The notes under the pieces: model-generated
Seen by the model: only the letters and a program-made list of their open reading frames with translations
The model's database searches: none
Told to the model about the DNA's origin: nothing
Shown here: positions 3,697-42,292 of the stretch, in pieces
Layout: each line of letters begins with the position of its first letter
Numbering within the stretch: the first letter of the stretch is position 1
DNA from: a plasmid
DNA: 64,000 bases
Assembly (NCBI RefSeq): GCF_057098645.1
Contig: NZ_JBXSPU010000002.1
Strand: one strand, 5' to 3'
Program-made: the position numbers and the translations under genes

Positions 3697-4581
3697 TCAG
3701 CGTTCCAGCCCCCTCTGCCGCCCTAACTGCCACGACACCGACCCGCCCTGCACGATGCCCATAACCTCGCGGCCGAGTTGGCGGTCGATGATCGGCCGCC
3801 ACGGGACAAGGGTGAACTCATGGGATTTCTCGACCACGGCGAACTTGCCGCTCGATAGATGCACGGTTCCGGTAAACTTGCCGCTGACGCTCTCGCCGTC
3901 CGTGGCGGCGCGGAACGGCAGGCCCTTACTCAAAGCCATATCCGATCCGACGCCGGCTACCTCGCGCTCCCGCAGGATGGCGAGAAGGTTGCGCCGGTAG
4001 AAGACGCGGCTGTCCCGGCTGCGGGTGGCGTCGCCCTGTTCGATATGGTGCTCGCGGCGCTGGTCCATGGCTTCGCGGACTTGTTGCCCGAAGCCGGTTG
4101 GCGCAAGGTCGGCCGTCTCGCCGTGGATCAGCCGCCGGTCCAGCCAGGTCGCGCCGTCCGATCCGATCTGTTTGTTCAGATCGACCGGGGAAAGGACGCG
4201 AACGCTGGCCTGACTGTCTCGGCCGGCGTCATGGGCGGCGGCACGGCTGACCAGATCATCGGGGATGCGCCATTGGTCGGCGTCGATCCGCTCGACGATA
4301 CCGGCCCGGCGTAGCGCCTCCAGCCGGCGCACATGGGCATCGACATAGCCCTCATAGTCGCCGCCTGGAACGCGGCACGTATAGGAAGAATAAACGCCCT
4401 TTTCACCCAAGTCCAACAGCTTTGGACCGCAGTTGACTCTTTCGACACCCCTGCGATGCAACCCAATCCGGCTGACGGGGAGCCAGCAACGCTGAAAATT
4501 TACCCTCCTCTTTCCCACTAGCGGCTCCTTTTCCGACAACCAGCACGGCGGATCCCTGCCGCGGCGCTGTGAACGCAGCAT
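3697..4581 (-). CDS. VirD2-like relaxase-domain protein (truncated form usually found between ISCR2 and floR)
   Basis: 294-aa ORF; its first ~68 codons are duplicated next to the second ISCR2 copy (9085-9289); position matches the known ISCR2-virD2-floR arrangement. Confidence 0.6.
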   Translation of the reverse strand: MLRSQRRGRDPPCWLSEKEPLVGKRRVNFQRCWLPVSRIGLHRRGVERVNCGPKLLDLGEKGVYSSYTCRVPGGDYEGYVDAHVRRLEALRRAGIVERIDADQWRIPDDLVSRAAAHDAGRDSQASVRVLSPVDLNKQIGSDGATWLDRRLIHGETADLAPTGFGQQVREAMDQRREHHIEQGDATRSRDSRVFYRRNLLAILREREVAGVGSDMALSKGLPFRAATDGESVSGKFTGTVHLSSGKFAVVEKSHEFTLVPWRPIIDRQLGREVMGIVQGGSVSWQLGRQRGLER

Positions 4582-5970
4582 TTTGATTGGTATCGTTGGC
4601 CTTCAGGCTCGTCAGTCAAACAGACCCAGGAGCAGCTCAGCCGGTGGCGCCCGGCTTTCGGGTAACGCCCTGGTCCCGCTGGTTTCGGCTTTGTGCTTCA
4701 GGTGATCAAGGATCTGCTTGATCACTATAGGGTCTTCAATGCAGGCGATGACTTTCATGGCGCCGCCGCAGCCGCTGCAGGTCTCGATGTCGATATTGAA
4801 AACACGCTTGAGCCGTTGCGCCCATGTCATCGACGCTCGCCGTTGTGCTGGTGTTGCCGGTTCATCAGCCACCCTGACCTTGTTGCCCCTGCCCCGTTTT
4901 GCCGGCGTGACCAACGCCCGGTGCCGACTGTTGGGTGCGAACACCCCGTGGAAGCGGGTTAGGTTGACTCTGGGCTTCGGTACCAGGGCGGCCAGCCTTG
5001 CAATGAAATCCAATGGTTCGAAAATGACGTGCGTGGTGCCGTCCTGGTACGGCGTCTTGAGCTGGTAGCGCACGTTGCCGCCTCGTGTTAACGACAGCCG
5101 CTTCTCGGATACCGCCGGGCGGCTGATGTACCGGCACAGCCGTTCGAGCTTCTTGCGTTCATCGGCCCTGGCCGCCACGCCGGCGTGCAGGCTGGACCCG
5201 GCTACCTTGCCAATCCCGTCACCGAACGGATCACCACTGGTCGGCAGAGTTTGCAAAGTGAACACCTTTCGCCCCGCCTGTGAACCGACAGCGATACGGT
5301 AAGTGATCGAGTGCCCCAGCAGGGGTGTCATCGGGTCGTCATCCACCGCATCCGAGGCCAGATAGCTGTTTTCGACATCCCGTTCCAGCAGGCCTTGCCG
5401 TTCCAGATAGCGACCCACCCGGTGGGCGATGGTGTGCGTCAGCTGGGTGAGCTCTGGGCTGGTCGGCGCCTTGACCCAGCGGAAACGCGCTGAGCCGTGG
5501 GATTGCTCGACATACACACCGTCGAGAAACAGCATGTGGAAGTGAACATTCAGATTGAGCGCCGATCCAAAACGCTGGATCAGGGTGACCGCGCCCGTCT
5601 TGGCCACTTGGTGGGTATGGCCCGCTTTCTTGACCAGGTGCGTGGCAATGACGCGGTAAACGATGCCCAGCACCCACCCCATGATCTCGGGCCGGCTGGC
5701 AAACAGGAAACGCAGCTGAAACGGGAAGCTCAACACCCACTGACGCATGGGTTGTTCAGGCAGTACTTCATCAACCAGCAAGGCGGCACTTTCGGCCATC
5801 CGCCGCGCCCCACAGCTCGGGCAGAAACCGCGACGCTTACAGCTGAAAGCGACCAGGTGCTCGGCGTGGCAAGACTCGCAGCGAACCCGTAGAAAGCCAT
5901 GCTCCAGCCGCCCGCATTGGAGAAATTCTTCAAATTCCCGTTGCACATAGCCCGGCAATTCCTTTCCCTG
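4378..5970 (-). mobile_element. ISCR2, 5'-truncated copy
   Basis: 4378-5970 aligns with 9085-10677 of the complete copy; similarity ends at 5970 where the low-GC zitR segment begins. Confidence 0.85.
4612..5958 (-). pseudogene. ISCR2 rolling-circle transposase (IS91 family), N-terminally truncated (448 of 497 aa)
   Basis: ORF identical to residues 50-497 of the 9320..10813 ORF apart from 1-2 substitutions. Confidence 0.85.
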
Positions 5971-8958: not shown

Positions 8959-9084
8959 AAAACCTCCTTGATTGATCGTAATAACAAGTCAAATCAAGTT
9001 AATTGTTCATGTCAGCAAACCTCATCAGTTCTAAATTAAGATGCACGTATTTTAACTTTGTACAAAATAAAGTCAATGAAAAAC

Positions 9085-9289
9085 ACGTATAGGAAGAATA
9101 AACGCCCTTTTCACCCAAGTCCAACAGCTTTGGACCGCAGTTGACTCTTTCGACACCCCTGCGATGCAACCCAATCCGGCTGACGGGGAGCCAGCAACGC
9201 TGAAAATTTACCCTCCTCTTTCCCACTAGCGGCTCCTTTTCCGACAACCAGCACGGCGGATCCCTGCCGCGGCGCTGTGAACGCAGCAT
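9085..9289 (-). pseudogene. 5' fragment of virD2-like gene carried on the 3' flank of ISCR2
   Basis: 9085-9320 duplicates 4378-4612; ORF 8999..9289 starts MLRSQRRGRDPPCW... exactly as the virD2-like ORF and then diverges. Confidence 0.6.
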
Positions 9290-9319
9290 TTTGATTGGTA
9301 TCGTTGGCCTTCAGGCTCG

Positions 9320-10813
9320 TCAGTCAAACAGACCCAGGAGCAGCTCAGCCGGTGGCGCCCGGCTTTCGGGTAACGCCCTGGTCCCGCTGGTTTCGGCTTT
9401 GTGCTTCAGGTGATCAAGGATCTGCTTGATCACTATAGGGTCTTCAATGCAGGCGATGACTTTCATGGCGCCGCCGCAGCCGCTGCAGGTCTCGATGTCG
9501 ATATTGAAAACACGCTTGAGCCGTTGCGCCCATGTCATCGACGCTCGCCGTTGTGCTGGTGTTGCCGGTTCATCAGCCACCCTGACCTTGTTGCCCCTGC
9601 CCCGTTTTGCCGGCGTGACCAACGCCCGGTGCCGACTGTTGGGTGCGAACACCCCGTGGAAGCGGGTTAGGTTGACTCTGGGCTTCGGTACCAGGGCGGC
9701 CAGCCTTGCAATGAAATCCAATGGTTCGAAAATGACGTGCGTGGTGCCGTCCCGGTACGGCGTCTTGAGCTGGTAGCGCACGTTGCCGCCTCGTGTTAAC
9801 GACAGCCGCTTCTCGGATACCGCCGGGCGGCTGATGTACCGGCACAGCCGTTCGAGCTTCTTGCGTTCATCGGCCCTGGCCGCCACGCCGGCGTGCAGGC
9901 TGGACCCGGCTACCTTGCCAATCCCGTCACCGAACGGATCACCACTGGTCGGCAGAGTTTGCAAAGTGAACACCTTTCGCCCCGCCTGTGAACCGACAGC
10001 GATACGGTAAGTGATCGAGTGCCCCAGCAGGGGTGTCATCGGGTCGTCATCCACCGCATCCGAGGCCAGATAGCTGTTTTCGACATCCCGTTCCAGCAGG
10101 CCTTGCCGTTCCAGATAGCGACCCACCCGGTGGGCGATGGTGTGCGTCAGCTGGGTGAGCTCTGGGCTGGTCGGCGCCTTGACCCAGCGGAAACGCGCTG
10201 AGCCGTGGGATTGCTCGACATACACACCGTCGAGAAACAGCATGTGGAAGTGAACATTCAGATTGAGCGCCGATCCAAAACGCTGGATCAGGGTGACCGC
10301 GCCCGTCTTGGCCACTTGGTGGGTATGGCCCGCTTTCTTGACCAGGTGCGTGGCAATGACGCGGTAAACGATGCCCAGCACCCACCCCATGATCTCGGGC
10401 CGGCTGGCAAACAGGAAACGCAGCTGAAACGGGAAACTCAACACCCACTGACGCATGGGTTGTTCAGGCAGTACTTCATCAACCAGCAAGGCGGCACTTT
10501 CGGCCATCCGCCGCGCCCCACAGCTCGGGCAGAAACCGCGACGCTTACAGCTGAAAGCGACCAGGTGCTCGGCGTGGCAAGACTCGCAGCGAACCCGTAG
10601 AAAGCCATGCTCCAGCCGCCCGCATTGGAGAAATTCTTCAAATTCCCGTTGCACATAGCCCGGCAATTCCTTTCCCTGCTCTGCCATAAGCGCAGCGAAT
10701 GCCGGGTAATACTCGTCAACGATCTGATAGAGAAGGGTTTGCTCGGGTCGGTGGCTCTGGTAACGACCAGTATCCCGATCCCGGCTGGCCGTCCTGGCCG
10801 CCACATGAGGCAT
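9320..10813 (-). CDS. ISCR2 transposase (IS91 family, HUH rolling-circle, 497 aa)
   Basis: ORF with N-terminal Zn-binding Cys cluster (CESCHAEHLVAFSCKRRGFCPSC) and HUH region; recognised as ISCR2 Rcr2. Confidence 0.9.
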   Translation of the reverse strand: MPHVAARTASRDRDTGRYQSHRPEQTLLYQIVDEYYPAFAALMAEQGKELPGYVQREFEEFLQCGRLEHGFLRVRCESCHAEHLVAFSCKRRGFCPSCGARRMAESAALLVDEVLPEQPMRQWVLSFPFQLRFLFASRPEIMGWVLGIVYRVIATHLVKKAGHTHQVAKTGAVTLIQRFGSALNLNVHFHMLFLDGVYVEQSHGSARFRWVKAPTSPELTQLTHTIAHRVGRYLERQGLLERDVENSYLASDAVDDDPMTPLLGHSITYRIAVGSQAGRKVFTLQTLPTSGDPFGDGIGKVAGSSLHAGVAARADERKKLERLCRYISRPAVSEKRLSLTRGGNVRYQLKTPYRDGTTHVIFEPLDFIARLAALVPKPRVNLTRFHGVFAPNSRHRALVTPAKRGRGNKVRVADEPATPAQRRASMTWAQRLKRVFNIDIETCSGCGGAMKVIACIEDPIVIKQILDHLKHKAETSGTRALPESRAPPAELLLGLFD

Positions 10814-11151: not shown

Positions 11152-13216
<2,065 letters not shown>

Positions 13217-13462
13217 TTATCAATGTTTAACTGTTATGCTGGTATCTTTCACAATGCCCGCTAACTTATATATATACGAAACATTCTACTCTATTTCATA
13301 CCCATATGGCAAGATAGGCGAATGTTTTTACTATTTTATTTCGCATTTTGAATTTCTCAAATATAAAAATTATTTTAACATTTTAGTACTTATAGTGCTT
13401 AATTATTGGTGATGCTGCCAACTTACTGATTTAGTGTATGATGGTGTTTTTGAGGTGCTCCA

Positions 13463-13738
13463 GTGGCTTCTGTTTCTATCAGCTGTCCCTCCTGTTCAGC
13501 TACTGACGGGGTGGTGCGTAACGGCAAAAGCACCGCCGGACATCAGCGCTATCTCTGCTCTCACTGCCGTAAAACATGGCAACTGCAGTTCACTTACACC
13601 GCTTCTCAACCCGGTACGCACCAGAAAATCATTGATATGGCCATGAATGGCGTTGGATGCCGGGCAACCGCCCGCATTATGGGCGTTGGCCTCAACACGA
13701 TTTTCCGCCATTTAAAAAACTCAGGCCGCAGTCGGTAA
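13463..13738 (+). CDS. insA: IS1 InsA
   Basis: 91-aa [33 protein letters not shown]... Confidence 0.9.
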
Positions 13739-14160
13739 CCTCGCGCATACAGCCGGGCAGTGACGTCATCGTCTGCGCGGAAATGGACGAACAGTGGGGA
13801 TACGTCGGGGCTAAATCGCGCCAGCGCTGGCTGTTTTACGCGTATGACAGGCTCCGGAAGACGGTTGTTGCGCACGTATTCGGTGAACGCACTATGGCGA
13901 CGCTGGGGCGTCTTATGAGCCTGCTGTCACCCTTTGACGTGGTGATATGGATGACGGATGGCTGGCCGCTGTATGAATCCCGCCTGAAGGGAAAGCTGCA
14001 CGTAATCAGCAAGCGATATACGCAGCGAATTGAGCGGCATAACCTGAATCTGAGGCAGCACCTGGCACGGCTGGGACGGAAGTCGCTGTCGTTCTCAAAA
14101 TCGGTGGAGCTGCATGACAAAGTCATCGGGCATTATCTGAACATAAAACACTATCAATAA
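13657..14160 (+). CDS. insB: IS1 InsB (expressed as InsAB' by -1 frameshift)
   Basis: 167-aa ORF overlapping insA in the -1 frame. Confidence 0.85.
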
Positions 14161-14339
14161 GTTGGAGTCATTACCCACTGCGCATACCGTATTCCTCACG
14201 AATTAATGCTCAAATACAGACCGGTCAAAAGAGATGTCAATCATAGCATCAGGCAAGCCGGTGACTAACAGGTTGCATAACCTCATTATCATTGGGAGAT
14301 GTGCCCCTCCGCCGCCTTGCCCGAATCGACCTTGTTCGG

Positions 14340-14687
14340 TCATCGTGAAAGTCTGTTTGCTATTGTCGTTGGGGATAAACCATCAAGCTTTTCAGCATCG
14401 CGCATCAAGTCCGCAACCCCTTTGCTGGCGTGCCCCAAATCAAACACTACGACCGGGCCAACCTCTATACCCTGCCCAAGAAGCGCCGGATCAATCACTA
14501 TGATCTGACCTAAATGCTCTGATTTTTTCTCAGTACTAAAAGCTAACGTGGATGGTGTAACTTGAACTGGTGACTGCCCGTAGACAACAGTTTTCACAGA
14601 TAAAGCGAATATTTTGCATGTCCTCATCCCACATAGTGTCCGACTAAAACCCAGGCCGTGCCCACCCGACCATCCTGCCCGCTTCAA
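14340..14687 (-). CDS. hypothetical protein (possibly a gene remnant)
   Basis: 115-aa ORF only; no recognisable family. Confidence 0.25.
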
Positions 14688-14933
14688 TACACCCTATGTG
14701 ACAATCGTGCCCTGACCAGGCCGCATGCGAATTTTGAGGAAACAGGGAGAAAATAAAAAGAAAACAAAAAGTTATCGGCTGAAGTATTTGCACTGATCTC
14801 AAATCAGGCGAAGCCTGACAGCACGTATGGGTCTGGCAGGGGACTTTAGGGATGAGGACATGCAATTGTGATAACCCTCCCGCCACGGGGTCGGTTAAAT
14901 TCGTATCCTGCCGGTGCAATTCCAACGGACGCA

Positions 14934-15371
14934 TTACCAGTTCGCCGGGTAGCATGGCCAACAAAGCCAGGCATCGAGCACACGGGTTTCACTGACGGCC
15001 GCTGCATAGACGCCGGTATCCGGGAAGAAATAAACCGGGGTGGCGTTGTTCAACTGGTCGCCTTCATCGGCCAGAGCACCGATCACCTCATGAGGCTTCA
15101 GCAGCATATCCGTTAAATATTCATCCGGGTGGATGGCATTCAGCGATATGGCCAGCTCCAGAAATTCATCCAGGGTGTGGCGGGTACGATACCCCCGGAA
15201 TACTTCGTATGAAGGCGAGACGCATTCTCCATACTGGGAACAGGCATCATACCCGGCCAGCTGCTCTTCGGTGAATCTGGAGGCATGCTTTGCCACGAGA
15301 CTCGTAAACTGCTCTTTATCGTCCATCACAATCCTTACACTGTAGGGGCCTGTTTTGTCAGACGCGACCAC
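14934..15371 (-). CDS. hypothetical protein
   Basis: 145-aa ORF, acidic; no family recognised. Confidence 0.4.
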   Translation of the reverse strand: MVASDKTGPYSVRIVMDDKEQFTSLVAKHASRFTEEQLAGYDACSQYGECVSPSYEVFRGYRTRHTLDEFLELAISLNAIHPDEYLTDMLLKPHEVIGALADEGDQLNNATPVYFFPDTGVYAAAVSETRVLDAWLCWPCYPANW

Positions 15372-15975
15372 CGGCTATGAACCGACAAGACGTCAGTCGC
15401 CTGCCAGCCCGGGCGAGGTGGAATACAGTTTACCAGTTCCGGCCGACCGACTTTGCTGCCAGGAGACGCTAAATACACTAATATTGAATCGTTGCATCTT
15501 CGATATCCGGGTGACATTCTGGTTCCCGGCTTTTCTGATCGGGTATGTAATGATCAATGCCCCCTCCCCCAGGATAAAATTATCAGGGCGCAAGGGTAGC
15601 TGGAGGAAGGATGGATACCATACATTTCTGCTTAATGCTTTTTTTTTGCTTCTGACGTTCTGGTAATCTAATTTTTATCACGATTTGAAAATGATAAATG
15701 GAATACACGTAATGAGTTACGCCCACCTTTTTGAAAATTGCGATCATGTTATTGAGGGCAACATTCTCCTCGACATTGCGAGTATTCCGCCCGTTCTGAA
15801 AAAGGCCCTGATCTTTCTCATCCAATCCGGACTGGAGCGGGAGGCATTTAACGCTCAATTAACAGAGCTCTTGATATTACCGCAGCCGAATTGTCAGCCC
15901 ACCTGCTTACTCCGGGAAACGCCTGAATGCGGTTCTTTGTCTTTACCTTGTTTTAATTTCACTACATGCTAACGT

Positions 15976-16482
15976 ATGCATACATTAGGCAAAATGGTTT
16001 CTCCAATGGAAAAGACGCAATCACCCGCAGAGCGCTTTTACGAAAGCATTTATTATTCTGATGAAAGCCTGGAAGAGGATTACCTCGCGGAGCTCCGCAA
16101 TTTCAGCAGCGACCACTGGGACACTGCACTGCGTGCCGCCCGTTTGTCTGCGGCGGTAAAGCGTTTCAAGACATCGGAGATGCTTCGCTTCATTCTGGAA
16201 TTCGTTGTTCCCGAGAACGCTCAGGAAGACGCCCCCGATCTGACACCGCTCGCAGCGAAGCGGCTTTGCAACTCCCTGTTCGGCCGGTCTGGTAGCCAGT
16301 CCATTCTTGTCTATGTCTTTGGCCAGGCAGGCCGTGTGCATCGCAGTGCAACCTGTTCCCCCAAAACCATAGAGGCTATCGCTGCTCTTTATCGTTCTGA
16401 CGCTGAACGCTACTGGAATTCAACTCTTGCGACAATTGAAAGGGTCAAACACACCTACCGCGCAAAAATCCGAAACTCCTGA
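15976..16482 (+). CDS. hypothetical protein
   Basis: 168-aa ORF; no family recognised. Confidence 0.4.
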   Translation: MHTLGKMVSPMEKTQSPAERFYESIYYSDESLEEDYLAELRNFSSDHWDTALRAARLSAAVKRFKTSEMLRFILEFVVPENAQEDAPDLTPLAAKRLCNSLFGRSGSQSILVYVFGQAGRVHRSATCSPKTIEAIAALYRSDAERYWNSTLATIERVKHTYRAKIRNS

Positions 16483-16737
16483 TCCAGTTATTAGACCTTA
16501 CGCCTTAATGCTAATGTATGCGTCCATTAGCTTTAAGCGAAGACGGACTTATTCAGGATGCTTTTACCAAAGAAGAACCACTGGGATTGGTTTTGATGGC
16601 TGTGCCAATTTATATTACCGGTCTGATCATGATAGGTACTCTGTTCACATGTAAGAAATGAACAGCCTGTTTCTGTTTAAGGCGAACAGGTTTATTCTCT
16701 TCACGCTTCCATGTCCCCCATAATTTCCCATCCCTCT

Positions 16738-17811
16738 TCAGAGCAATGAGTAATTGTTTGGTCCTTCAGATTCTCCCACCCTACTGTCTTCGCAGGCCGT
16801 CAGGCAGACACTTTTAAGCCGGTGGTTATAGAGACCAATACGGACGATTTCCTGGAGATAATCCCTTTCCTCCACCGTTAGTAACTGCCCTTCCTTTGAT
16901 TTTGTAATCATGTCCTGCCAGTTAAGCAATTTCTCGTAATTCACATGCTCACTGGTGTCGAGGCAATGCAGCCGGAAGTAACGCATAAACAGCGGGAATT
17001 CGTCGGTCTGGGCGATATCTGAAGCTCTGACGGTGAGCCGACACAAACACACAATGGTGGCCTGCTGCATTCTTATCAGCACATTCATGCTCTGGGGTAA
17101 GTTGTCCGGCAGCTTCAGGGGGCAGTCGGAAAGGCGTTGTAGAAGTGGTCCTGCTTCCGCTGGCTCGCGGCCCTCATATACCTTCAGGGGCTCGGTCCCC
17201 AGTTCCTGCATCATGGGGTGATACAACCATTCGCGTGACTCCGTCGCATCAATGATGATTTTCTCGATACATTCACTGTAGGTACCATCTCGTCTACCAA
17301 GCTGAACCTGACTGATTTCGTATTCTATATCCGGCAGATCAATGCGCAATGCAGCTACCATCTCCGAGGCATGGAGATGGTCGAACGTCAGTTTCCCGGC
17401 CACACTGCGGTCAATGTCCAGAAACACAGCTACGCAGAGATCGTTCACCTTCACAAACAGATCTGCCGTTGCGCCGAACATGCTTCCGCTGCCGCTGACT
17501 TCATCAAGTGGGACCGTGCCTCCATCGTAACCGGCCAGAAGATGCGGGAATCCTAGAAGTTGTTTTTCCTGAATAATTTCAATAATTTTTCCCCGAATCG
17601 CCTCCATCAGGCCATCACAATCACCGAGGAGATCGGTACTGTGGCTATAGTGCCAAAGTTTGACCTCTCCCTGTCTGGCTATCAAATCCGTACGACACCC
17701 AGGACAGATGCAGTTGCATGCGCTTCCTCTGCTGACTTCCGTGATGTCCAGAAACCGTCCGGTTTCGCGATGGAGTCCGAAAGGAATCCCATAGGTATAG
17801 CTCTTTCGCAT
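16738..17811 (-). CDS. hypothetical protein with N-terminal CxxC..CxxC zinc-ribbon-like motif
   Basis: 357-aa ORF; motif CNCICPGC near the N-terminus; otherwise unrecognised. Confidence 0.5.
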   Translation of the reverse strand: MRKSYTYGIPFGLHRETGRFLDITEVSRGSACNCICPGCRTDLIARQGEVKLWHYSHSTDLLGDCDGLMEAIRGKIIEIIQEKQLLGFPHLLAGYDGGTVPLDEVSGSGSMFGATADLFVKVNDLCVAVFLDIDRSVAGKLTFDHLHASEMVAALRIDLPDIEYEISQVQLGRRDGTYSECIEKIIIDATESREWLYHPMMQELGTEPLKVYEGREPAEAGPLLQRLSDCPLKLPDNLPQSMNVLIRMQQATIVCLCRLTVRASDIAQTDEFPLFMRYFRLHCLDTSEHVNYEKLLNWQDMITKSKEGQLLTVEERDYLQEIVRIGLYNHRLKSVCLTACEDSRVGESEGPNNYSLL

Positions 17812-18205
17812 GTCAGTGCCCCCGCTGAATACATACCTTCACTATATCGGGCGAAGACAGCATGACACTTCGATAAGAAGACTATTTTTCGTGAGATTTT
17901 AATACCGTAACTGAGCGGATTGATAAAACGATGATGATTAGACACGGGTGAAAAGTTACTTTTCCGATTGCCAAAACCTCCACCAGCAGTGTGCCATATT
18001 AATCTGGACGGATTCGGAATTAACGAGCGTTTCTTCAGCTGACTCATTTTTTGGCCGAAAATGGCTTTGTTTTATACACCGCAATTACCTTCAATGCAGT
18101 TTGTGGTTATTAATATAATCCATTATAAATTTCATGAGCTCCGGGTCACTTCGGGCTGAAAAAAGGACTTTCGCTACTTCTTTCATTGCATTTGTCGCAT
18201 TACTG

Positions 18206-18973
18206 GGTAATGACTCCAACTTACTGATAGTGTTTTATGGTCAGATAATGCCCGATGACTTTGTCATGCAGCTCCACCGATTTTGAGAACGACAGTGACT
18301 TCCTGCCCAGCCTTGCCAGATGCTGTCTCAGATTCAGGTTATGCCGCTCAATGCGCTGAGTGTAACGCTTGCTGATAACGTGCAGCTTTCCCTTCAGGCG
18401 TGATTCATAAAGCGGCCAGTCATCCGTCATCCATACCACGACCTCAAAGGCCGACAGCAGGCCCGGAAGACGCTCCAGCGTGGCCAACGTGCGTTCACCG
18501 AATACGTGCGCCACAACCGTCCTCCGTATCCTGTCATACGCGTAAAACAACCAGAGCTGGCGTGATTTAGCACCGACGTAACCCCACTGTTCGTCCATTT
18601 CCGCGCAGACGATGACGTCACTGCCCGGCTGTATGCGCGAGGTTACCGACTGCGGCCTGAGTTTTTTAAATGGCGGAAAATCGTGTTGAGGCCAACGCCC
18701 ATAATGCGGGCGGTTGCCCGGCATCCAACGCCATTCATGGCCATATCAATGATTTTCTGGTGCGTACCGGGTTGAGAAGCGGTGTAAGTGAACTGCAGTT
18801 GCCATGTTTTACGGCAGTGAGAGCAGAGATAGCGCTGATGTCCGGCAGTGCTTTTGCCGTTACGCACCACCCCGTCAGTAGCTGAACAGGAGGGACAGCT
18901 GATCGAAACAGAAGCCACTGGAGCACCTCAAAAACACCATCATACACTAAATCAGTAAGTTGGCACCATTACC
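18206..18973 (-). mobile_element. IS1 (768 bp), copy B, inverted relative to copy A
   Basis: insB 18221..18724 and insA 18643..18918 on minus strand; terminal sequence at 18961-18973 is a variant (GGTAATGGTGCC instead of GGTGATGCTGCC). Confidence 0.9.
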
Positions 18974-18999
18974 CGGGAAGAGGGGGAAAATCTAGTGTG

Positions 19000-20108
<1,109 letters not shown>

Positions 20109-20124
20109 TCAACAGGGATGGATA

Positions 20125-20245
20125 ACTTTGTGAAAAGCAACGCTTCCTGAGGGCAATTTGTCACAGGGTTAAGGGCAACTTGTCACAGAAAGGGCGGCTA
20201 TTTGAGGGTGATTTGTCACACTGAAAGGGCGTTTTGTCACAGATC
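20125..20245. repeat. ori2 iterons (four ~19-bp TGTGACAAnTnnCCCT-type direct repeats) upstream of repE
   Basis: TGAGGGCAATTTGTCACA / GGGCAACTTGTCACA / GAGGGTGATTTGTCACA / GGGCGTTTTGTCACA read directly. Confidence 0.8.
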
Positions 20246-20334
20246 CCTCTCTGGAACCCGCATGGATAAAGGCCTGTGGGCATTCTAAAAATAAAGATCT
20301 AACAACTATTTAAAAAGATCTTATAAAAATATCC

Positions 20335-20356
20335 CCGTGGATAAGTGGATAACCCC
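20335..20356. promoter_or_regulatory. tandem DnaA boxes of ori2
   Basis: GTGGATAAGTGGATAACC contains two TTATCCAC-type boxes next to the AT-rich stretch 20280-20335. Confidence 0.7.
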
Positions 20357-20617
20357 TAGGGGAGGTGATTTTGCAGGCATTGAGCGTATGCAGAATTTAT
20401 GAGTACTGTTCCATGGTGCTTCCTCGCTCACTCGGGGCTTCGCCCTGTCGCTCGGCTGCGGCGAGCACTGCTGGCTCGATTATATCTGTGGCCAGAAGTT
20501 AGACATACAGCCTATTAATTACGTGATGAGCGGCAGGGAAAAACACCAAAAGCCTCCCCCATTACCCCGGAACAAATTGAAATCCGTGAGCTCAGGAAAA
20601 AGCTACAACGTATTGAA

Positions 20618-21385
20618 GGTAATGACTCCAACTTATTGATAGTGTTTTATGTTCAGATAATGCCCGATGACTTTGTCATGCAGCTCCACCGATTTTGAGA
20701 ACGACAGCGACTTCCGTCCCAGCCGTGCCAGGTGCTGCCTCAGATTCAGGTTATGCCGCTCAATTCGCTGCGTATATCGCTTGCTGATTACGTGCAGCTT
20801 TCCCTTCAGGCGGGATTCATACAGCGGCCAGCCATCCGTCATCCATATCACCACGTCAAAGGGTGACAGCAGGCTCATAAGACGCCCCAGCGTCGCCATA
20901 GTGCGTTCACCGAATACGTGCGCAACAACCGTCTTCCGGAGCCTGTCATACGCGTAAAACAGCCAGCGCTGGCGCGATTTAGCCCCGACATAGCCCCACT
21001 GTTCGTCCATTTCCGCGCAGACGATGACGTCACTGCCCGGCTGTATGCGCGAGGTTACCGACTGCGGCCTGAGTTTTTTAAGTGACGTAAAATCGTGTTG
21101 AGGCCAACGCCCATAATGCGGGCAGTTGCCCGGCATCCAACGCCATTCATGGCCATATCAATGATTTTCTGGTGCGTACCGGGTTGAGAAGCGGTGTAAG
21201 TGAACTGCAGTTGCCATGTTTTACGGCAGTGAGAGCAGAGATAGCGCTGATGTCCGGCGGTGCTTTTGCCGTTACGCACCACCCCGTCAGTAGCTGAACA
21301 GGAGGGACAGCTGATAGAAACAGAAGCCACTGGAGCACCTCAAAAACACCATCATACACTAAATCAGTAAGTTGGCAGCATCACC
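20618..21385 (-). mobile_element. IS1 (768 bp), copy C, same orientation as copy B
   Basis: insB 20633..21136 (variant N-terminus MPGNCPHYG...), insA 21055..21330; canonical ends. Confidence 0.9.
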
Positions 21386-21636
21386 ATTTCGTCCAAGCTC
21401 GCCGCGTTTAAATAAAAGGAAATGAAGGGAACAGGTAAAAATATTAGATGTTTAATTCTCATACGAGTTACCACCATGGAGCGGAAACAGGATTTTGAAT
21501 GACGTGATGACTTTACTAATTAAGCTTATTTAGAGGTATTAATAGAATATTAAAAAATTTTAATTTTACTGCTGACGTTTTCATAAATCTCCTTTCCTGA
21601 AAAGTCGGCGATAAATTGGTTACCAATATCTTCATA

Positions 21637-21891
21637 TTACTGACGGACCAGTGTCCATACGCTTGCGGGTACTTTATCGTAGAGTTTCTTCATTGTCAGT
21701 TCAGCTTTTCGATGGTCATATGCCCCGGAAATTTCCAGTGATGCTATACCTGCATTTTTTTCACAGAGTCGTTCGAATACTTTTTCCAGTGTGTCGAAAG
21801 AAGAGCACTTACGAAATTTCATTAAATACGCCTGCTTAGTTTCGGACATGGTCAACCTTAATTTATTTCCCGCGAAAGTACGGTTTCCCAA
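21637..21891 (-). CDS. hypothetical small protein
   Basis: 84-aa ORF; possible internal start at MSETKQAYLMKF... Confidence 0.3.
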   Translation of the reverse strand: MGNRTFAGNKLRLTMSETKQAYLMKFRKCSSFDTLEKVFERLCEKNAGIASLEISGAYDHRKAELTMKKLYDKVPASVWTLVRQ

Positions 21892-21991
21892 TCTTATGTC
21901 GTTTTGTCCCTAGAATCTAATTTTTTTCACAAATATTTGATGTTTATCTCCGGATCGTTGTTGTAGTCGCTCTCTCTTTTTTAGTTGCTGT

Positions 21992-23048
21992 GGCTTTGTT
22001 GAATAAATCAGATTTCGGGTAAGTCTCCCCCGTAGCGGGTTGTGTTTTCAGGCAATACGCACGCTTTCAGGCATACCTGCTTTCGTCATTTTGTTCAGCG
22101 CTCGTACCAGGGCCATAGCCTCCGCAACCTGACCATCGTAGTCACGCAGCGTCAGTGAACCCCCGAACAGCTGTTTTACCCGGTACATCGCCGTTTCCGC
22201 TATCGAGCGACGGTTGTAATCTGTTGTCCATTTCCACCGCGCATTACTCCCGGTCATTCGCTGATTAGCCACTGCACGGTTACGGTCTGCATATTCACCG
22301 GGCCAGTAGCCCGCACCTTTTCGGGGAGGGATAAGCGCGCTGATTTTCTTACGCCGCAGTTCATCGTGACATAGCCGGGTATCGTAAGCGCCATCGGCGG
22401 CGGCTGACCTGATTTTCCGGTGGGTTTGCCGGATTAACCCGGGGAAGGCCTCTGAGTCCGTAACGTTGTTCAGCGACAGGTCTGCACAGATGATTTCATG
22501 TGTTTTACTGTCAACGGCGAGATGCAGCTTACGCCAGATACGGCGGCGTTCCTGGCCATGCTTTTTGACTTTCCACTCGCCTTCACCGAAGACCTTCAGC
22601 CCGGTGGAATCAATCACCAGATGTGCGATTTCACCCCGGGTGGGCGTTTTGAAACTGACATTAACCGACTTTGCCCGCCTGCTGACACAGCTGTAATCCG
22701 GGCAGCGTAGCGGAACGTTCATCAGAGAAAAAATGGAATCAATAAAGCCCTGCGCAGCGCGCAGGGTCAGCCTGAATACGCGTTTAATGACCAGCACAGT
22801 CGTGATGGCAAGGTCAGAATAGCGCTGAGGTCTGCCTCGTGAAGAAGGTGTTGCTGACTCATACCAGGCCTGAATAGCTTCATCATCCAGCCAGAAAGTT
22901 ATGGAGCCACGGTTGATGAGGGCTTTATTGTAGGTGGGCCAGTTGGTGATTTTGAACTTTTGCTTTGCCACGGAACGGTCTGCGTTGTCGGGAAGATGCG
23001 TGATCTGATCCTTCAACTCAGCAAAAGTTCGATTTATTCAACAAAGCC
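21992..23048 (-). mobile_element. IS903B-like element (IS5 family, 1057 bp), copy 1
   Basis: 18-bp terminal IRs GGCTTTGTTGAATAAATC; flanked by 9-bp direct repeat AGTTGCTGT. Confidence 0.9.
22048..23016 (-). CDS. IS903-type DDE transposase
   Basis: ORF ...KQKFKITNWPTYNKALINRGSITFWLDDEAIQAWY... recognised as IS903/IS102 transposase; true start probably internal. Confidence 0.9.
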   Translation of the reverse strand: MKDQITHLPDNADRSVAKQKFKITNWPTYNKALINRGSITFWLDDEAIQAWYESATPSSRGRPQRYSDLAITTVLVIKRVFRLTLRAAQGFIDSIFSLMNVPLRCPDYSCVSRRAKSVNVSFKTPTRGEIAHLVIDSTGLKVFGEGEWKVKKHGQERRRIWRKLHLAVDSKTHEIICADLSLNNVTDSEAFPGLIRQTHRKIRSAAADGAYDTRLCHDELRRKKISALIPPRKGAGYWPGEYADRNRAVANQRMTGSNARWKWTTDYNRRSIAETAMYRVKQLFGGSLTLRDYDGQVAEAMALVRALNKMTKAGMPESVRIA

Positions 23049-28084: not shown

Positions 28085-28305
28085 TATTTACCTGTAGAGT
28101 GCTTGCAAAATGGCATCTGAATCGATCGCAGTTTGGCATTCGAATCGATCATGATTTGGCATCCATCTCCGATCACAGTTTGGCATCACAATCGATCACG
28201 ATTTGGCATGCTTCCGATCATTGATTGGCATCCTGCCAGTCACTCCGGGAATTAACTCTTTTCACCACAGTCTCCATTGCCGTGTTTAAACCAGTGGAGA
28301 CGTCA

Positions 28306-29871
28306 ATGTCCAGAAAGAGAAAATCCAGGAGCACTATGGAAACCTGTTTTAAGATCCTTCAGCTCAAGTTCGACAAGAAGCTGACTAACCGTTGTATCGG
28401 ACTGACGTTACACATCAGCGCCTCAACCGTTTTTGAGGTTCTTGCCCGCTTCAAAGCCTCTTCTCTGTCATGGCCATTACCTGCTGATATATCCCATGAC
28501 ACGCTGGAGAAACTCATTTTTCCGCCCAAAGACACCTTTGCATCAGAGCTTGTAATGCCTGACATGTTGTACTTCGATACGGAAATGAGAAAACCAGGTG
28601 TGACGCGGCAACTGTTGTGGATGGAATACAAGGCACAGGCGGGTAACAAAGCGATGGGATACTCGCACTTCTGCCGTTGCTACCGGGAGTGGAAAAAAAC
28701 GCGACGTCTCTCCATGCGCCAGGAGCATCGTGCCGGCGAAAAGCTTTTTATCGACTTCTGTGGTCCTACGGTTCCTGTTATTAATCCGGACACCGGTGAG
28801 ATACGCCGCGTGGCAATCTTCGTGGCCGTAATGGGGGCGTCCAACTATACCTACGTTGAAGCGTGCGAAGGTCAGGACATGATGTCATGGTTAAATGCCC
28901 ACAGCCGTTGCCTGACCTTCCTGGGCGGCGTACCGAAGCTGCTCATCCCCGATAACCTCAGAAGCGCAGTGAAAAAGGCCGATCGATATGAGCCTGTCAT
29001 CAACGACAGTTATCAGGCACTGGCTGAGCACTATGGCACGGTTATCATCCCGGCCCGACCACGCAAACCTAAAGATAAACCAAAAGCAGAAAACGGCGTC
29101 CTCATCGTTGAACGATGGCTTCTTGCCCGCATCCGTAATGAAACCTTCCACACGCTCAGGGCGCTGAATGCGCGCCTTAGGGAGTTACTGACAGACATGA
29201 ATAACCGGCCAATGAAGGGGTACGGCAATCAAACCCGTGCAGAACGCTTCCGCATACTGGATGCGCCAGCACTCTCTCCGCTGCCTCTGGCACCTTATGA
29301 ATACACGGAATACAAAGCTGTGAAGGTTGGCCCTGACTACCACGTTGAATATGCCCGTCACTGGTACTCCGTTCCACACGAACTGGTCGGTCAGCGTCTG
29401 TCACTGAAGGCGGGGCAGTCGGTGGTACAGCTCTGGCACAAGGGGCAGTGTGTGGCGCAACATCCGCGCAGCACACATGAATATAAACACACAACCAATC
29501 CGCTTCACATGCCAGAGCGCCACCGGCAGCACGGGACATGGACACCGGAACGCCTGATCGAGCAGGGAAAACGTACGGGCCCGTCCACAGGCCGGGTGGT
29601 TGAATCCATGCTGAAGGCAAAACCCCATCCGGAACTGGCTTATCGTGCAGTTCTGGGGCTGCTGGCACTTCAGAAAAAATACGGCCCGGAACGGCTGGAA
29701 AAGGCCTGTTACGTTGCCCTGCACTATAACGCCCCTGACAGACGCTTTATCGACAATCTGCTGCGTCACCATCGGGAGAACCTGGAGCTTCCATTATCCC
29801 GCCAGGGCGAACAACATCCGGCATATGCTTCAGAGCATGAAAACCTGCGTGGTCCGGGCTACTACCACTGA
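28306..29871 (+). CDS. istA: IS21-family transposase IstA
   Basis: ORF 28225..29871; N-terminal HTH, central DDE integrase-like core; start codon choice uncertain. Confidence 0.8.
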   Translation: MSRKRKSRSTMETCFKILQLKFDKKLTNRCIGLTLHISASTVFEVLARFKASSLSWPLPADISHDTLEKLIFPPKDTFASELVMPDMLYFDTEMRKPGVTRQLLWMEYKAQAGNKAMGYSHFCRCYREWKKTRRLSMRQEHRAGEKLFIDFCGPTVPVINPDTGEIRRVAIFVAVMGASNYTYVEACEGQDMMSWLNAHSRCLTFLGGVPKLLIPDNLRSAVKKADRYEPVINDSYQALAEHYGTVIIPARPRKPKDKPKAENGVLIVERWLLARIRNETFHTLRALNARLRELLTDMNNRPMKGYGNQTRAERFRILDAPALSPLPLAPYEYTEYKAVKVGPDYHVEYARHWYSVPHELVGQRLSLKAGQSVVQLWHKGQCVAQHPRSTHEYKHTTNPLHMPERHRQHGTWTPERLIEQGKRTGPSTGRVVESMLKAKPHPELAYRAVLGLLALQKKYGPERLEKACYVALHYNAPDRRFIDNLLRHHRENLELPLSRQGEQHPAYASEHENLRGPGYYH

Positions 29872-29887
29872 CAGAAGGAACAACAGT

Positions 29888-30643
29888 ATGAGTGATAACC
29901 TGTTAAACAAACTGACCCAACTGAAACTCCCGGCGATGGCCGGGAGCCTGATACGGCAGCGGGAAACGCCTCAGACCTACGACGAACTGTCGTTCGAGGA
30001 AAGGCTGACGCTGCTGGTTGATGACGAGCTTCTGAGCAGGGAAAACAGCCGTGTGGCACGGTTGAGAAAAAATGCCGGCCTGAAATACCAGGCAACACCG
30101 GAAGGGCTGCGCTATCCGGCCTCAAGAGGTCTGCGGGCTGAACAGATGAGAGAACTGCTGAACGGCCACTACATAACCCACAGGAAAAACCTGCTGATAA
30201 CCGGTCCGACAGGATGTGGCAAGAGCTGGATAGCCAATGCGCTGGGCGAACAGGCATGTCGACAGAAACACAGCGTCCGGTACTGTAGAACCGGGCGATT
30301 ACTGGAACAACTGGCTCAGGGACGTGTTGATGGCAGCTGGCTGAAATATCTGAAACAGTTGCAAAAAATACAGGTTCTAATCCTGGACGATCTGGGGCTG
30401 GAACAGTTAAGTAACGCCCAGTGTAATGACCTTCTGGAGCTCATAGAGGATCGTTACGGACAAAGCAGCACGATAGTGGTAAGCCAGTTCCCGGTAGATA
30501 AATGGCATGGTCTGATGGAGAACCCAACAACAGCAGATGCCATCCTGGACAGACTGGTACATAACTCACACCGAGTGGTCCTTCAGGGAGAGTCACTGAG
30601 GAAAAATCCCCCGGTAGTGGAAAGCAGCGAAAAAACGCGTTAA
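29888..30643 (+). CDS. istB: IS21-family helper ATPase IstB
   Basis: Walker A GPTGCGKS and Walker B VLILDDLG in ORF starting MSDNLLNKL... Confidence 0.85.
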   Translation: MSDNLLNKLTQLKLPAMAGSLIRQRETPQTYDELSFEERLTLLVDDELLSRENSRVARLRKNAGLKYQATPEGLRYPASRGLRAEQMRELLNGHYITHRKNLLITGPTGCGKSWIANALGEQACRQKHSVRYCRTGRLLEQLAQGRVDGSWLKYLKQLQKIQVLILDDLGLEQLSNAQCNDLLELIEDRYGQSSTIVVSQFPVDKWHGLMENPTTADAILDRLVHNSHRVVLQGESLRKNPPVVESSEKTR

Positions 30644-30792
30644 AAAGCGGTAGAAAAAGTTAAGTTCCCGGTTGATCGAATGGATGCGAATCGCTGATCG
30701 GACTTCGATGCCAATCCGTGATCGAATAGAGCGGAATACGCACTCGTTATCATCAAGATAAAGAGGTTATTCTGCATGATTGTAAGGAAGAG

Positions 30793-38317: not shown

Positions 38318-39374
38318 GGCTTTGTTGAATAAATCAGATTTCGGGTAAGTCTCCCCCGTAGCGGGTTGTGTTTTCAGGCAATACGCACGCTTTCAGGCAT
38401 ACCTGCTTTCGTCATTTTGTTCAGCGCTCGTACCAGGGCCATAGCCTCCGCAACCTGACCATCGTAGTCACGCAGCGTCAGTGAACCCCCGAACAGCTGT
38501 TTTACCCGGTACATCGCCGTTTCCGCTATCGAGCGACGGTTGTAATCTGTTGTCCATTTCCACCGCGCATTACTCCCGGTCATTCGCTGATTAGCCACTG
38601 CACGGTTACGGTCTGCATATTCACCGGGCCAGTAGCCCGCACCTTTTCGGGGAGGGATAAGCGCGCTGATTTTCTTACGCCGCAGTTCATCGTGACATAG
38701 CCGGGTATCGTAAGCGCCATCGGCGGCGGCTGACCTGATTTTCCGGTGGGTTTGCCGGATTAACCCGGGGAAGGCCTCTGAGTCCGTAACGTTGTTCAGC
38801 GACAGGTCTGCACAGATGATTTCATGTGTTTTACTGTCAACGGCGAGATGCAGCTTACGCCAGATACGGCGGCGTTCCTGGCCATGCTTTTTGACTTTCC
38901 ACTCGCCTTCACCGAAGACCTTCAGCCCGGTGGAATCAATCACCAGATGTGCGATTTCACCCCGGGTGGGCGTTTTGAAACTGACATTAACCGACTTTGC
39001 CCGCCTGCTGACACAGCTGTAATCCGGGCAGCGTAGCGGAACGTTCATCAGAGAAAAAATGGAATCAATAAAGCCCTGCGCAGCGCGCAGGGTCAGCCTG
39101 AATACGCGTTTAATGACCAGCACAGTCGTGATGGCAAGGTCAGAATAGCGCTGAGGTCTGCCTCGTGAAGAAGGTGTTGCTGACTCATACCAGGCCTGAA
39201 TAGCTTCATCATCCAGCCAGAAAGTTATGGAGCCACGGTTGATGAGGGCTTTATTGTAGGTGGGCCAGTTGGTGATTTTGAACTTTTGCTTTGCCACGGA
39301 ACGGTCTGCGTTGTCGGGAAGATGCGTGATCTGATCCTTCAACTCAGCAAAAGTTCGATTTATTCAACAAAGCC
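38318..39374 (-). mobile_element. IS903B-like element (1057 bp), copy 2
   Basis: identical transposase ORF (38374..39342) and IRs as copy 1; flanked by 9-bp direct repeat CCCTCAGAG. Confidence 0.9.
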
Positions 39375-40349: not shown

Positions 40350-41285
40350 ATGAAAATTATTGAGAAAATCATTAATGCATTTCTGATATCGCGTAAACAT
40401 TCAGTGAAGGTCAGTAATGTTATCTGCTTGAGTGGCACCGACGGTAAATTTACTGGAATATGCTGTGACGCCGATGTTTCATTTGATTTTCTTTATTCGT
40501 ATGCCCCCGCATACAGTTCAACATTTTTAGATATCCCGTTTCCTGGGTTTGAAGACCAGGACATCGCGGATTGTGTTAAATGTCAGTTAGATGTAGTTAA
40601 AAATAAACGGAATCGGTCTTTTTTAATTGACCATATTAGATTTCCAGTTTCCTCAAGGGAAGGATTCACTCTGACACGCGGTGATAGTTACGACGTGACT
40701 GAATGTGAATATAATAAGGAACGATTGCTACATCTGACCCGACAAGGACGTTTTTGTGAAGACTATCTCACGTTCAAGGATGGCCTGAGTTCCTTCTTTT
40801 CATTTGTGAATTTCGAATTACATGAAATAGTGAAGGAAGGTATACGTTTGGCACTTGATGTTTTAAACAAGATTACATCTGATCAACCAGACCGTCTTAT
40901 AAAAGACTTTAAGTATCATGATTGCTTCGGCAGTTATAATGTACAAATATTTTCTAAGGGTCTGCCAGTTGATATCCTTGAAACGATGATTGCACCTGAT
41001 AGGTTGTTGTCTAACTTGTCAGGTAGTCGTCAGATTATGAAAAATGCAAGTCGCTATCTTAAAGGCTTTGCCCTCAGTAATCGTGTTTACATGAAATACG
41101 GATGGCGTTTAGCAGATGTTGACACATCTGACTATGCGAAAGTTATGTCAGATAGAGAAATGCATGCCAGAGATGATCTTAAGGCGTTTTGCAGTGTCTT
41201 TTTTAAAGAGTGTTTCGCATCCGGAAAATATGAATACGAAGCATACCTGAGTGAAAGACAACACGCGATTCGTAACGGGTATTAA
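40350..41285 (+). CDS. hypothetical protein, tandem paralog family member 2 (311 aa)
   Basis: N-terminal IINAFL motif; size and position as other members. Confidence 0.55.
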   Translation: MKIIEKIINAFLISRKHSVKVSNVICLSGTDGKFTGICCDADVSFDFLYSYAPAYSSTFLDIPFPGFEDQDIADCVKCQLDVVKNKRNRSFLIDHIRFPVSSREGFTLTRGDSYDVTECEYNKERLLHLTRQGRFCEDYLTFKDGLSSFFSFVNFELHEIVKEGIRLALDVLNKITSDQPDRLIKDFKYHDCFGSYNVQIFSKGLPVDILETMIAPDRLLSNLSGSRQIMKNASRYLKGFALSNRVYMKYGWRLADVDTSDYAKVMSDREMHARDDLKAFCSVFFKECFASGKYEYEAYLSERQHAIRNGY

Positions 41286-41308
41286 TACTTATTATCAACT
41301 TATCTAAT

Positions 41309-41342
41309 CCCTGAGGGAATTCTTCCCTTGGGGAGGATTCCC
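41309..41342 (+). promoter_or_regulatory. GC-rich hairpin element (family member)
   Basis: CCCTGAGGGAATTCTTCCCTTGGGGAGGATTCCC; full stem pairing needs G-U wobble pairs, so an RNA-level structure is suggested. Confidence 0.6.
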
Positions 41343-41362
41343 TCTTAACCGAGGGCTACAAA

Positions 41363-42283
41363 ATGAAAGCGATTTATAAAATAATTGAAGCGATGCTGGT
41401 GAAAATGGGCTTTGAAGGTGCCGTGATCCAAAGTGTCAATCTGGAAACGGGTGTGATTCAGAGTCTAGTTGTTAAGGCTGATATTCCTGTCCGGACTTTA
41501 ATGCCGCATTTAAGGCGATATCTGCGCGATTGTGAGCCTTTATGGGGACATGACGTGGATTACCACCCTATAGCACAATATTGCTCAGGAGCTGCGTTGT
41601 TGAAGGCTGGGCCGGTCACTCTTGAAACCTTTCGGTTTGAGGTTTCAGTGTCAACTGCTCACCTGCGGCTTGTGGATGTTGAGCCGGACTGTCTAAATGA
41701 GGGTGTGAACCGTGAAAAACTGGAGTATGTATATTACCGCTCCAGCAATGCAGACAAGGATCTAATACTTGGTATGGTTGAAAAAGGACATAATTTTATC
41801 AACCATCTGCATGAACTTTTACGCTCGCGCTTATCAACGGCTTTGCCGCTGATTTTCGCAGTTACAGAAAAGATTGCGGAGAGTTCAGTTCCACAAGTAA
41901 TCACCAGCTTTTTCAGTGTTGACCATCAAATCAATGCCCAGATAGTAGTCGAACCTGTACCCGTTTCAGTCGCAGACCAGATAATTTCTGCTGACTGGAA
42001 TGTGTGTAGTGTTTCAGGAGCGGATAAGTTCCTGAACCATGTTAATCGTTATCTGTCGGGTAGGGTGATGAAGCGGCGTATTTACGCTGTTATAGAAGCT
42101 TGCGACGGTGGATCTTTATCCCTCAATGCGAACTTAGGTTGCTTTACATCACCTCTTCTCGTAACTGAGTATAAAATGGTTCAGTCACACTCTTCATCGC
42201 TTTATCGAAAGGCTATAAATAACTCGCTTAAGCAAGTTAATTCGTATGCTCCAGAGCATTCAGATGACCTGCTTTCTATGTAA
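41363..42283 (+). CDS. hypothetical protein, tandem paralog family member 3 (306 aa)
   Basis: N-terminal IIEAML motif. Confidence 0.55.
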   Translation: MKAIYKIIEAMLVKMGFEGAVIQSVNLETGVIQSLVVKADIPVRTLMPHLRRYLRDCEPLWGHDVDYHPIAQYCSGAALLKAGPVTLETFRFEVSVSTAHLRLVDVEPDCLNEGVNREKLEYVYYRSSNADKDLILGMVEKGHNFINHLHELLRSRLSTALPLIFAVTEKIAESSVPQVITSFFSVDHQINAQIVVEPVPVSVADQIISADWNVCSVSGADKFLNHVNRYLSGRVMKRRIYAVIEACDGGSLSLNANLGCFTSPLLVTEYKMVQSHSSSLYRKAINNSLKQVNSYAPEHSDDLLSM

Positions 42284-42292
42284 TTAATTTTA

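Follow-up and report, generated by a model that had tools for sequence, protein, structure and literature searches.

Two complete copies of insertion sequence (IS) 1 stand in inverted orientation around about 4 kb of unrecognised genes at positions 13408-18973 of a 64,000-nucleotide stretch of plasmid DNA (contig NZ_JBXSPU010000002.1 of RefSeq assembly GCF_057098645.1; the window hereafter), and this arrangement raises the question whether the two copies and the genes between them form one mobile or invertible element. The initial annotation took the copies as a pair enclosing the genes and suspected inversions or deletions mediated by IS1 recombination. Comparison with related plasmids leads to a different answer, in which we have high confidence: the interval is conserved backbone of an IncHI1 (R27-type) plasmid located between two independent IS1-bounded modules and is not a mobile or invertible unit. 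The apparent pair is then the right end of one module standing next to the left end of another, and the enclosed genes are cargo of the backbone.

Three copies of IS1 are present in the window and were labelled A (13408-14175, plus strand), B (18206-18973, minus strand) and C (20618-21385, minus strand). The fourth, D, lies outside the window at 92097-92864 of the reference record, in the same orientation as A and beside the H-NS gene. For this mapping the 190-kb reference plasmid was rebuilt in full from pieces, and a scan of the rest of it revealed no further IS1, which makes a total of exactly four. Each window copy is 768 bp long with both ends, bears imperfect terminal inverted repeats of ~23 bp (GGTGATGCTGCCAACTTACTGAT / GGTAATGACTCCAACTTA...) and contains a 91-aa insA and a 167-aa insB' open reading frame (ORF); in A, which is IS1B-type, these overlapping frames are located at 13463-13738 and 13657-14160. 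The A6C frameshift site TTTAAAAAAC is kept across the alignment of the copies, and RefSeq annotates all three as IS1-family transposases. A 768-bp repeat with 95-99% identity cannot be due to chance.

Alignment of the copies shows that they are related to different degrees. A and B are indeed inverted and 4,030 bp apart, but they are only 94.66% identical, whereas A differs from C at 6 positions (99.22% identity) and is 99.87% identical to D. Out of the 41 differences between B and A, 34 fall within nt 401-700, so B is a mosaic or a different IS1 isoform. The left end of B reads GGTAATGGTGCC in place of the GGTGATGCTGCC seen in A, C and D, in line with the earlier remark that B has a variant terminal sequence and that the copies are not all clonal.

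Simple insertion of IS1 is expected to leave a direct target duplication of 8-9 bp, and the flanks of the copies were compared for its presence. Given as left and right 9 bp in the orientation of the IS, the flanks are TTAATTATT and CACTGCGCA for A, CTCTTCCCG and CAGTAATGC for B, and GGACGAAAT and TTCAATACG for C. A 9-bp direct duplication is absent at A, B and C, as the initial annotation had noted, and also at D. When left and right flanks of all four plasmid copies were paired with each other in both orientations, no pairing matched at 6 or more of the 9 positions, and shuffled half-duplications, the trace of an inversion or of recombination between copies, were not seen among the four. Duplications around whole elements are missing for all three pairings (A/B, D...A and B...C); for the A/B pair, TTAATTATT on one outer side shows no relation to CTCTTCCCG on the other, whether the latter is read directly or as the reverse complement. 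The missing duplications are compatible with the identity of these elements as IS1, and the copies are no longer simple insertions.

The partner of A is D. These two copies are direct repeats that bound a ~24-kb multiresistance region, of which A is the right-hand boundary, and the region carries aadA22, blaTEM-1, qnrS1, floR and ISCR2-tet(X4)-estT. The last unit of the region, tet(X4) (11152-12309) followed by the estT/abh hydrolase gene (12299-13216), lies on the minus strand at 11152-13216 according to the RefSeq annotation of the identical record NZ_MN101856, has a GC content of 36% and abuts A. This arrangement matches the published structure of the tet(X4) region, IS1...ISCR2-tet(X4)-abh-IS1 (PMC12115866), and tet(X4) plasmids of the IncHI1/FIA(HI1) group (p47EC / pT16R-1 / p2019XSD11-190 type) likewise have a multiresistance region between two direct IS1 copies. 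Positions 13000-21500 of the window are 100% identical to many of these plasmids, for example p2019XSD11-190 (NZ_MN101856), to which positions 1-21992 are 99.97% identical, and the junction between A and the backbone is present in 65 PLSDB records. The order of genes in RefSeq is estT, IS1 A, five hypothetical genes (85, 130, 158, 47 and 357 aa), IS1 B, repE, IS1 C, hha and a tyrosine recombinase gene.

The partner of B is C, which has the direct orientation with respect to B and adjoins hha. Together they form the boundaries of a RepFIA replicon segment (18974-20617, minus strand) with repE annotated at 19296-20051 in an ORF that reaches 20099. RepE matches the NCBIfam equivalog model NF010305 with 530 bits (cutoff 342) as well as Pfam Rep3_N and Rep3_C, as expected for an initiator of the Rep3 family. 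In the IncHI1 archetypes R27 (NC_002305) and pHCM1 (NC_003384) the RepFIA replicon is likewise flanked by IS1, and RepFIA of R27 has been described in the literature (PMC4853401). The junction of the backbone with B is present in 209 PLSDB records, pHCM1 among them; the flanks of B are identical in R27, pPNCS015054_S2 and p97974-2T, those of C are the same as in R27, and R27 and pPNCS015054_S2 carry both copies in flanks that are identical over 12 bp.

The IS1 at the C site itself differs between plasmids despite the identical flanks. The R27 copy (L017 15171-15939) is 769 bp long and resembles B (97.9% identity) more than A (96%), whereas copy C of the window is 99.2% identical to A. This suggests that the resident IS1 at the C site was replaced or gene-converted by an incoming IS1 type.

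What lies between A and B is found, in the same order, in plasmids that lack one or both of the modules. Positions 14184-21992 of the window are collinear with R27 (99.3% identity) and with the Salmonella plasmid pPNCS015054_S2, at 99.3-99.6%. Both plasmids have B and C but not A, and on the left side they have HNH-endonuclease genes and an H-NS gene in place of the tet(X4) region; R27 contains the same five backbone genes, the same B and C junctions, repE, and hha and the integrase gene as neighbours. The IncHI1A-like plasmid pPSP-75c of Pantoea has neither IS1 nor RepFIA. Homology of this plasmid to the window extends from 14176, the base that follows A, to 18205, the base that precedes B, and sets in again at 21389, 3 bp past C; the order and orientation of its genes (130-aa gene, 357-aa gene, hha, integrase) are those of the window. 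The 4-kb segment is present and collinear in pSa4-CIP as well; it is thus not a cargo that is absent from an empty site, as that of a composite transposon would be. As inferred from Table S2 of PMC4853401, the segment may correspond roughly to R27 ORFs R0173-R0176.

These comparisons show the junctions of the two modules and also what has been lost at each of them. Beside A, only the first 10 nt (ATGCGCAGTG; 14176-14185, minus strand) of a backbone gene for a 401-aa protein are left. The coding sequence is intact in pSa4-CIP (L016; WP_001255860), where the ATG and the next 7 nt equal window positions 14185-14176, and the Pantoea homologue of the gene starts at the same place. With pPNCS015054_S2 as a yardstick, the outer flank of D maps to L002 4421 and that of A to ~7001, and the D...A module replaces ~2.6 kb (L002 4422 to ~7000). 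At the other module, IS1 B, RepFIA and IS1 C interrupt a gene that encodes 213 aa in Pantoea: its 3' remnant lies at approximately 18091-18205 (minus strand) and its 5' remnant at ~21389-21462, beyond IS1 C, while 453 bp from inside the gene in pPSP-75c (L003 8940-9392) are missing from the window at B...C.

The backbone left of 14184 has two forms among IncHI1-type plasmids, with HNH-endonuclease genes in R27 and pPNCS015054_S2 and the 401-aa gene in pSa4-CIP and Pantoea. The switch point between the two forms is at most 8 bp from the end of IS1 A (window 14176-14184).

Each module thus replaced backbone DNA rather than being plainly inserted into it. On the left, the tet(X4) multiresistance region between the direct and near-identical copies D and A took the place of the 401-aa gene save its first 10 nt, or of ~2.6 kb in comparison to R27-type plasmids; on the right, RepFIA between the direct copies B and C, which has occupied exactly these junctions since at least R27, removed 453 bp from within the 213-aa-type gene. 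The loss may have occurred by IS1-mediated adjacent deletion, or by homologous exchange through IS1 with another molecule bearing the module. That no IS1 copy and neither composite has a target duplication is accounted for by this replacement. The layout of D...A and B...C is shared with IS1 composite transposons of the Tn9 type, in which two full IS1 copies bracket a stretch of DNA, here as direct repeats. In contrast, A and B enclose resident backbone and not imported cargo. Such an architecture is already known from descriptions of R27-type and tet(X4) IncHI1 plasmids.

Several points weigh against this reading or limit it. The 453-bp loss is deduced from a relative which is only 82% identical, and an IncHI1 plasmid that is without RepFIA yet otherwise near-identical was not found. 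The comparators differ from each other left of 14176, with HNH genes in some and the 401-aa gene in others, which leaves the amount lost at D...A uncertain, and the comparator set is without the immediate ancestor of the tet(X4) lineage. Finally, the mechanism of the loss is unreadable from the sequence alone.

Three other histories have to be weighed. Since A and B are 768-bp inverted repeats that could support a flip, and no copy has kept a duplication, homologous recombination between them could have inverted the enclosed segment and scrambled the duplications. We consider this very improbable. With respect to hha and the integrase gene, the enclosed genes have one and the same orientation here and in the IS1-free and A-free relatives; an inversion would have swapped flanks between A and B, and there is no reciprocal 9-bp match among any of the flanks; and the junctions of B are identical in R27, which is without A. 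From the suspected rearrangements, IS1-associated loss of DNA is thus retained, with DNA replaced at both modules, whereas an inversion does not agree with the unchanged ancestral order and orientation of the genes. It is equally improbable that all copies are simple insertions whose 9-bp duplications later decayed by point mutation. The insertions of B and C are indeed old, as they precede R27. However, the flanks are without residual similarity, fewer than 6 of 9 positions matching in every pairing, the IS1-free relatives reveal missing DNA at each module, and the surrounding backbone is at least 99% conserved between R27 and this plasmid, which implies that the flanks have not drifted. A Tn9-like composite transposon with inverted ends that brought the four genes in, as two complete inverted IS1 copies around 4 kb could suggest, is hardly credible, as the 4 kb has an unchanged position, orientation and neighbourhood (hha, integrase) in the A-free plasmids R27 and pPNCS015054_S2 and in the IS1-free Pantoea plasmid, no duplication surrounds the pair, and A and B are only 94.7% identical against 99.87% for A and D.

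With replacement of backbone DNA by two modules as the preferred explanation, the missing duplications are the expected trace of two replacing IS1-bounded modules and not the mark of an unusual inverted-repeat element, and the pairing of A with B as the enclosing elements has to be given up in favour of D with A and B with C around native backbone. These IS1 copies matter in practice as the recombination points used by the tet(X4) module in its transfer from one plasmid to another (PMC12115866). Within the backbone segment, a 357-aa CoiA-like protein and its four hypothetical neighbours show strict conservation in a plasmid family of clinical importance.

The 357-aa protein (WP_001232452; 16738-17811, minus strand) is 100% conserved from R27 to plasmids of 2019. 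It consists of an N-terminal zinc finger, a restriction-endonuclease-like fold at about residues 66-205 and a subfamily-specific helical C-terminal domain at about residues 220-343. The zinc finger is of the CoiA_N C2H2 type (C36-x2-C39...H54-x2-H57), with additional conserved cysteines at C32, C34 and C65; Pfam CoiA_N (PF25164) matches residues 33-59 with 29.1 bits, above the gathering cutoff of 26.3. Among 102 diverse homologues C36, C39 and H57 are invariant and H54 is nearly so. A Foldseek comparison of the protein with the PDB gave nothing below E = 0.06, and the CoiA nuclease domain of the PD-(D/E)XK type, PF06054, did not match at E ≤1.

The protein belongs to a large uncharacterised family. 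Full-length relatives form 14 clusters with identities down to 49%, and a profile search of 1.84 billion representatives found 4,522 proteins at E ≤0.001, aligned to residues 9-210; the family size of ~4,500 refers to clusters at 50% identity. Members of the wider family are mostly 270-320 aa long and in Pfam are assigned only CoiA_N or DUF7828. Conserved throughout the family are C32, C34, C36-P-x-C39, W53-H54-F-x-H57, C65, P89, D117, R135 and W195-x-x-H198-P199. Most of the distant members, whose length is about 300 aa, have a second conserved zinc ribbon (CxxC...W...CPxC) at their end; the IncHI protein is without this ribbon and has the helical domain in its place.

As to a nuclease active site, the protein has the aspartate of β-strand 2 (D117), which some 4,500 family clusters keep almost without exception. 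At the canonical β3 position it has F130, which is mostly Y or F in the relatives and E in 10 of 89, and it lacks a (D/E)xK motif there. In the IncHI subfamily β3 ends with D132-x-D134-R135 instead, where most relatives have T-H-P-x-R. The protein would most likely bind DNA and would possibly cut it.

The name given to the protein in UniRef, 'competence protein CoiA family protein', raises the question of its relation to CoiA, a competence-specific single-stranded DNA endonuclease that resolves the D-loops of transformation and whose active site is described as combining Asp on β2 with Glu on β3. CoiA is laid out as a zinc finger, a PD-(D/E)XK-like core and an uncharacterised C-terminal region, and it belongs to Bacillota, being anti-correlated with YraN in other phyla (bioRxiv 10.1101/2024.02.06.579203). 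The 357-aa protein has in common with CoiA (PF25164 and PF06054) the N-terminal C2H2 finger, the endonuclease-like alpha/beta core, the β2 Asp and an uncharacterised C-terminal extension. Unlike CoiA, it has no match to the nuclease domain, no β3 Glu, extra conserved cysteines (C32, C34, C65) and another C-terminal domain, and its gene is plasmid-borne in Enterobacterales, the plasmid here being conjugative. Membership in CoiA proper does not appear to be supported, because PF06054 is unmatched, the β3 acidic residue is replaced by F130 and the C-terminal domain is subfamily-specific.

Two proposals for the role of this protein can be compared. The first is that it is an active single-gene nuclease in conflicts of mobile elements, which would defend against or exclude phages or rival plasmids, or act in counter-defence, and not neutral cargo; we regard this as possible but rather unlikely. 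The zinc finger together with the restriction-endonuclease-like fold, the nearly invariant D117 and the complete conservation of the protein from R27 to 2019 are consistent with it, and so are the surroundings of distant members of the family. One relative directly follows BREX pglZ-brxL; another, in an island bounded by an integrase and with hipBA among its genes, comes after a type III restriction enzyme and an SMC-like ATPase; a third stands amid a run of small ORFs which includes a DUF932 protein. In a genome scan with a query of 12 closer sequences, 44 loci were found, mostly in marine gammaproteobacteria, and their 84 immediate neighbours include ResIII/DEAD helicases (7), TOTE primase (4), VapE (3), GmrSD (2) and ParE (2). 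PADLOC matches among the neighbours are PbeA (5), type IV restriction enzyme (5), PrimPol (4), mad8 (3), HEC-06 (2) and PDC-S11 (2). Such a habitat, with restriction, primase and toxin-antitoxin genes nearby, points to mobile elements or defence islands.

However, this survey had no control set, its relatives are only ~25% identical to the plasmid protein, over the N-terminal domain, and no fixed partner gene was seen across the 44 loci. The protein itself has no match in PADLOC and lacks the canonical β3 (D/E)xK, and its context on the plasmid is not a defence island. Moreover, going by Table S2 of PMC4853401, the R27 deletion series apparently covers R0171-R0178, which would span this region, with only incC seeming to affect stability. 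A link of the family to conflict systems is accordingly put forward as a tentative hypothesis, and with the same reserve we suggest that the protein could be a zinc-finger-guided nuclease of a family acting in conflicts between elements and hosts, the IncHI version of which, with a helical C-terminal domain of its own, might protect or establish the plasmid.

The second proposal, that the protein is a true CoiA orthologue resolving recombination D-loops in natural transformation, is very doubtful: the Pfam CoiA_N match, the UniRef name and the three-part layout agree with it, but the PF06054 nuclease domain is unmatched at E ≤1, the Glu of the CoiA active site on β3 is replaced by Phe at 130, and CoiA belongs to Bacillota (bioRxiv 10.1101/2024.02.06.579203) while the host range here is that of Enterobacterales plasmids.

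The remaining enclosed genes are small. The ORFs of 357, 168, 145 and 115 aa that had been listed before do exist, the last three being annotated in RefSeq as 158, 130 and 85 aa, and RefSeq adds an ORF of 47 aa. For all five annotated proteins exact matches occur on contigs numbering from hundreds to over 1,000, always under the name 'hypothetical', in keeping with their earlier description as unrecognised. Scans of all enclosed ORFs with Pfam, NCBIfam, PADLOC and PHROGs gave nothing significant except CoiA_N on the 357-aa protein; none of the five proteins matched PADLOC-DB v2 at E ≤1, and sequence searches of the PDB with single sequences and with the family profile yielded only spurious best E values of 0.4-0.9.

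The 115-aa ORF (14340-14687, minus strand; RefSeq 85 aa at 14340-14597) is a small conserved hypothetical gene without a match in family scans. It had been taken for a possible remnant, but it is intact and 96-97% identical in pSa4-CIP and R27, and in Pantoea it is 52.6% identical over 95 aa with no stops. The 130-aa protein (WP_000341067; 14934-15326, minus strand), which corresponds to the 145-aa ORF read from a GTG, has no match in Pfam, NCBIfam, PADLOC or the PDB. Its gene is present at ~90% nucleotide identity in more than 1,000 IncHI2-type records, and these have in common with the window the stretch 14614-15358, that is the gene and ~320 bp downstream, but not the rest of the interval. 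The 158-aa protein (WP_000416123; 16006-16482, plus strand; the 168-aa ORF starts at 15976) has homologues of 45-56% identity named only 'cytoplasmic protein' or 'YadA', and family and PDB searches with it gave no match. Only the last 30 codons of its gene are left in Pantoea, as are the last 23 codons of the 47-aa ORF (16518-16661, plus strand). The 885 bp with most of the 158-aa gene was considered as an insertion and this was rejected; Pantoea keeps the 3' ends of both ORFs, and this indicates a deletion in Pantoea.

Further repeats are present inside the left module. Its tet(X4)/floR part contains two direct 1,595-bp copies of ISCR2/ISVsa3 (4376-5970 and 9084-10678; 99.9% identical), and another pair of repeats of at least 300 bp is located at 1625 and 10617.

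Right of 21992 the window departs from all records found, the tet(X4) plasmids of the p47EC type included, by extra IS insertions, a 14.3-kb inversion and a virulence segment of enterohaemorrhagic E. coli (EHEC) type. Two direct insertions of ~1,057 bp (21993-23048 and 38318-39374), absent from p2019XSD11-190, are IS903/IS5-like to judge from their size and from how matching records annotate them; each has a clean 9-10-bp duplication of the backbone, unlike the IS1 copies. Between two inverted and 100% identical 2,640-bp copies of an IS21-family element with istA/istB (28103-30742 and 46076-48715) lie 14.3 kb of backbone from the IncHI1 transfer region (reference record 40484-54751), inverted in comparison to p2019XSD11-190. 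Both copies adjoin an identical 7-bp piece of backbone (record 54745-54751), a pattern expected from intramolecular replicative transposition with inversion.

From 48716 to 64000 the window is 99.6% identical to the enterohaemolysin/katP region (ehxCABD, katP, colicin M immunity) of pO157-like EHEC virulence plasmids, for example NZ_CP024480. An IS21-family (ISSso4-like) element links this EHEC-type segment with the tet(X4) IncHI1 backbone, the junction being at ~46076-48716. Within the collections searched, the junction region 44500-50500 is not covered by any PLSDB record or any complete RefSeq E. coli genome, and no literature was found on tet(X4) in combination with ehxA. A cointegrate plasmid that combines resistance and virulence is a possible source of the window, and the junction with the EHEC segment is potentially of more interest than the inverted IS1 pair.

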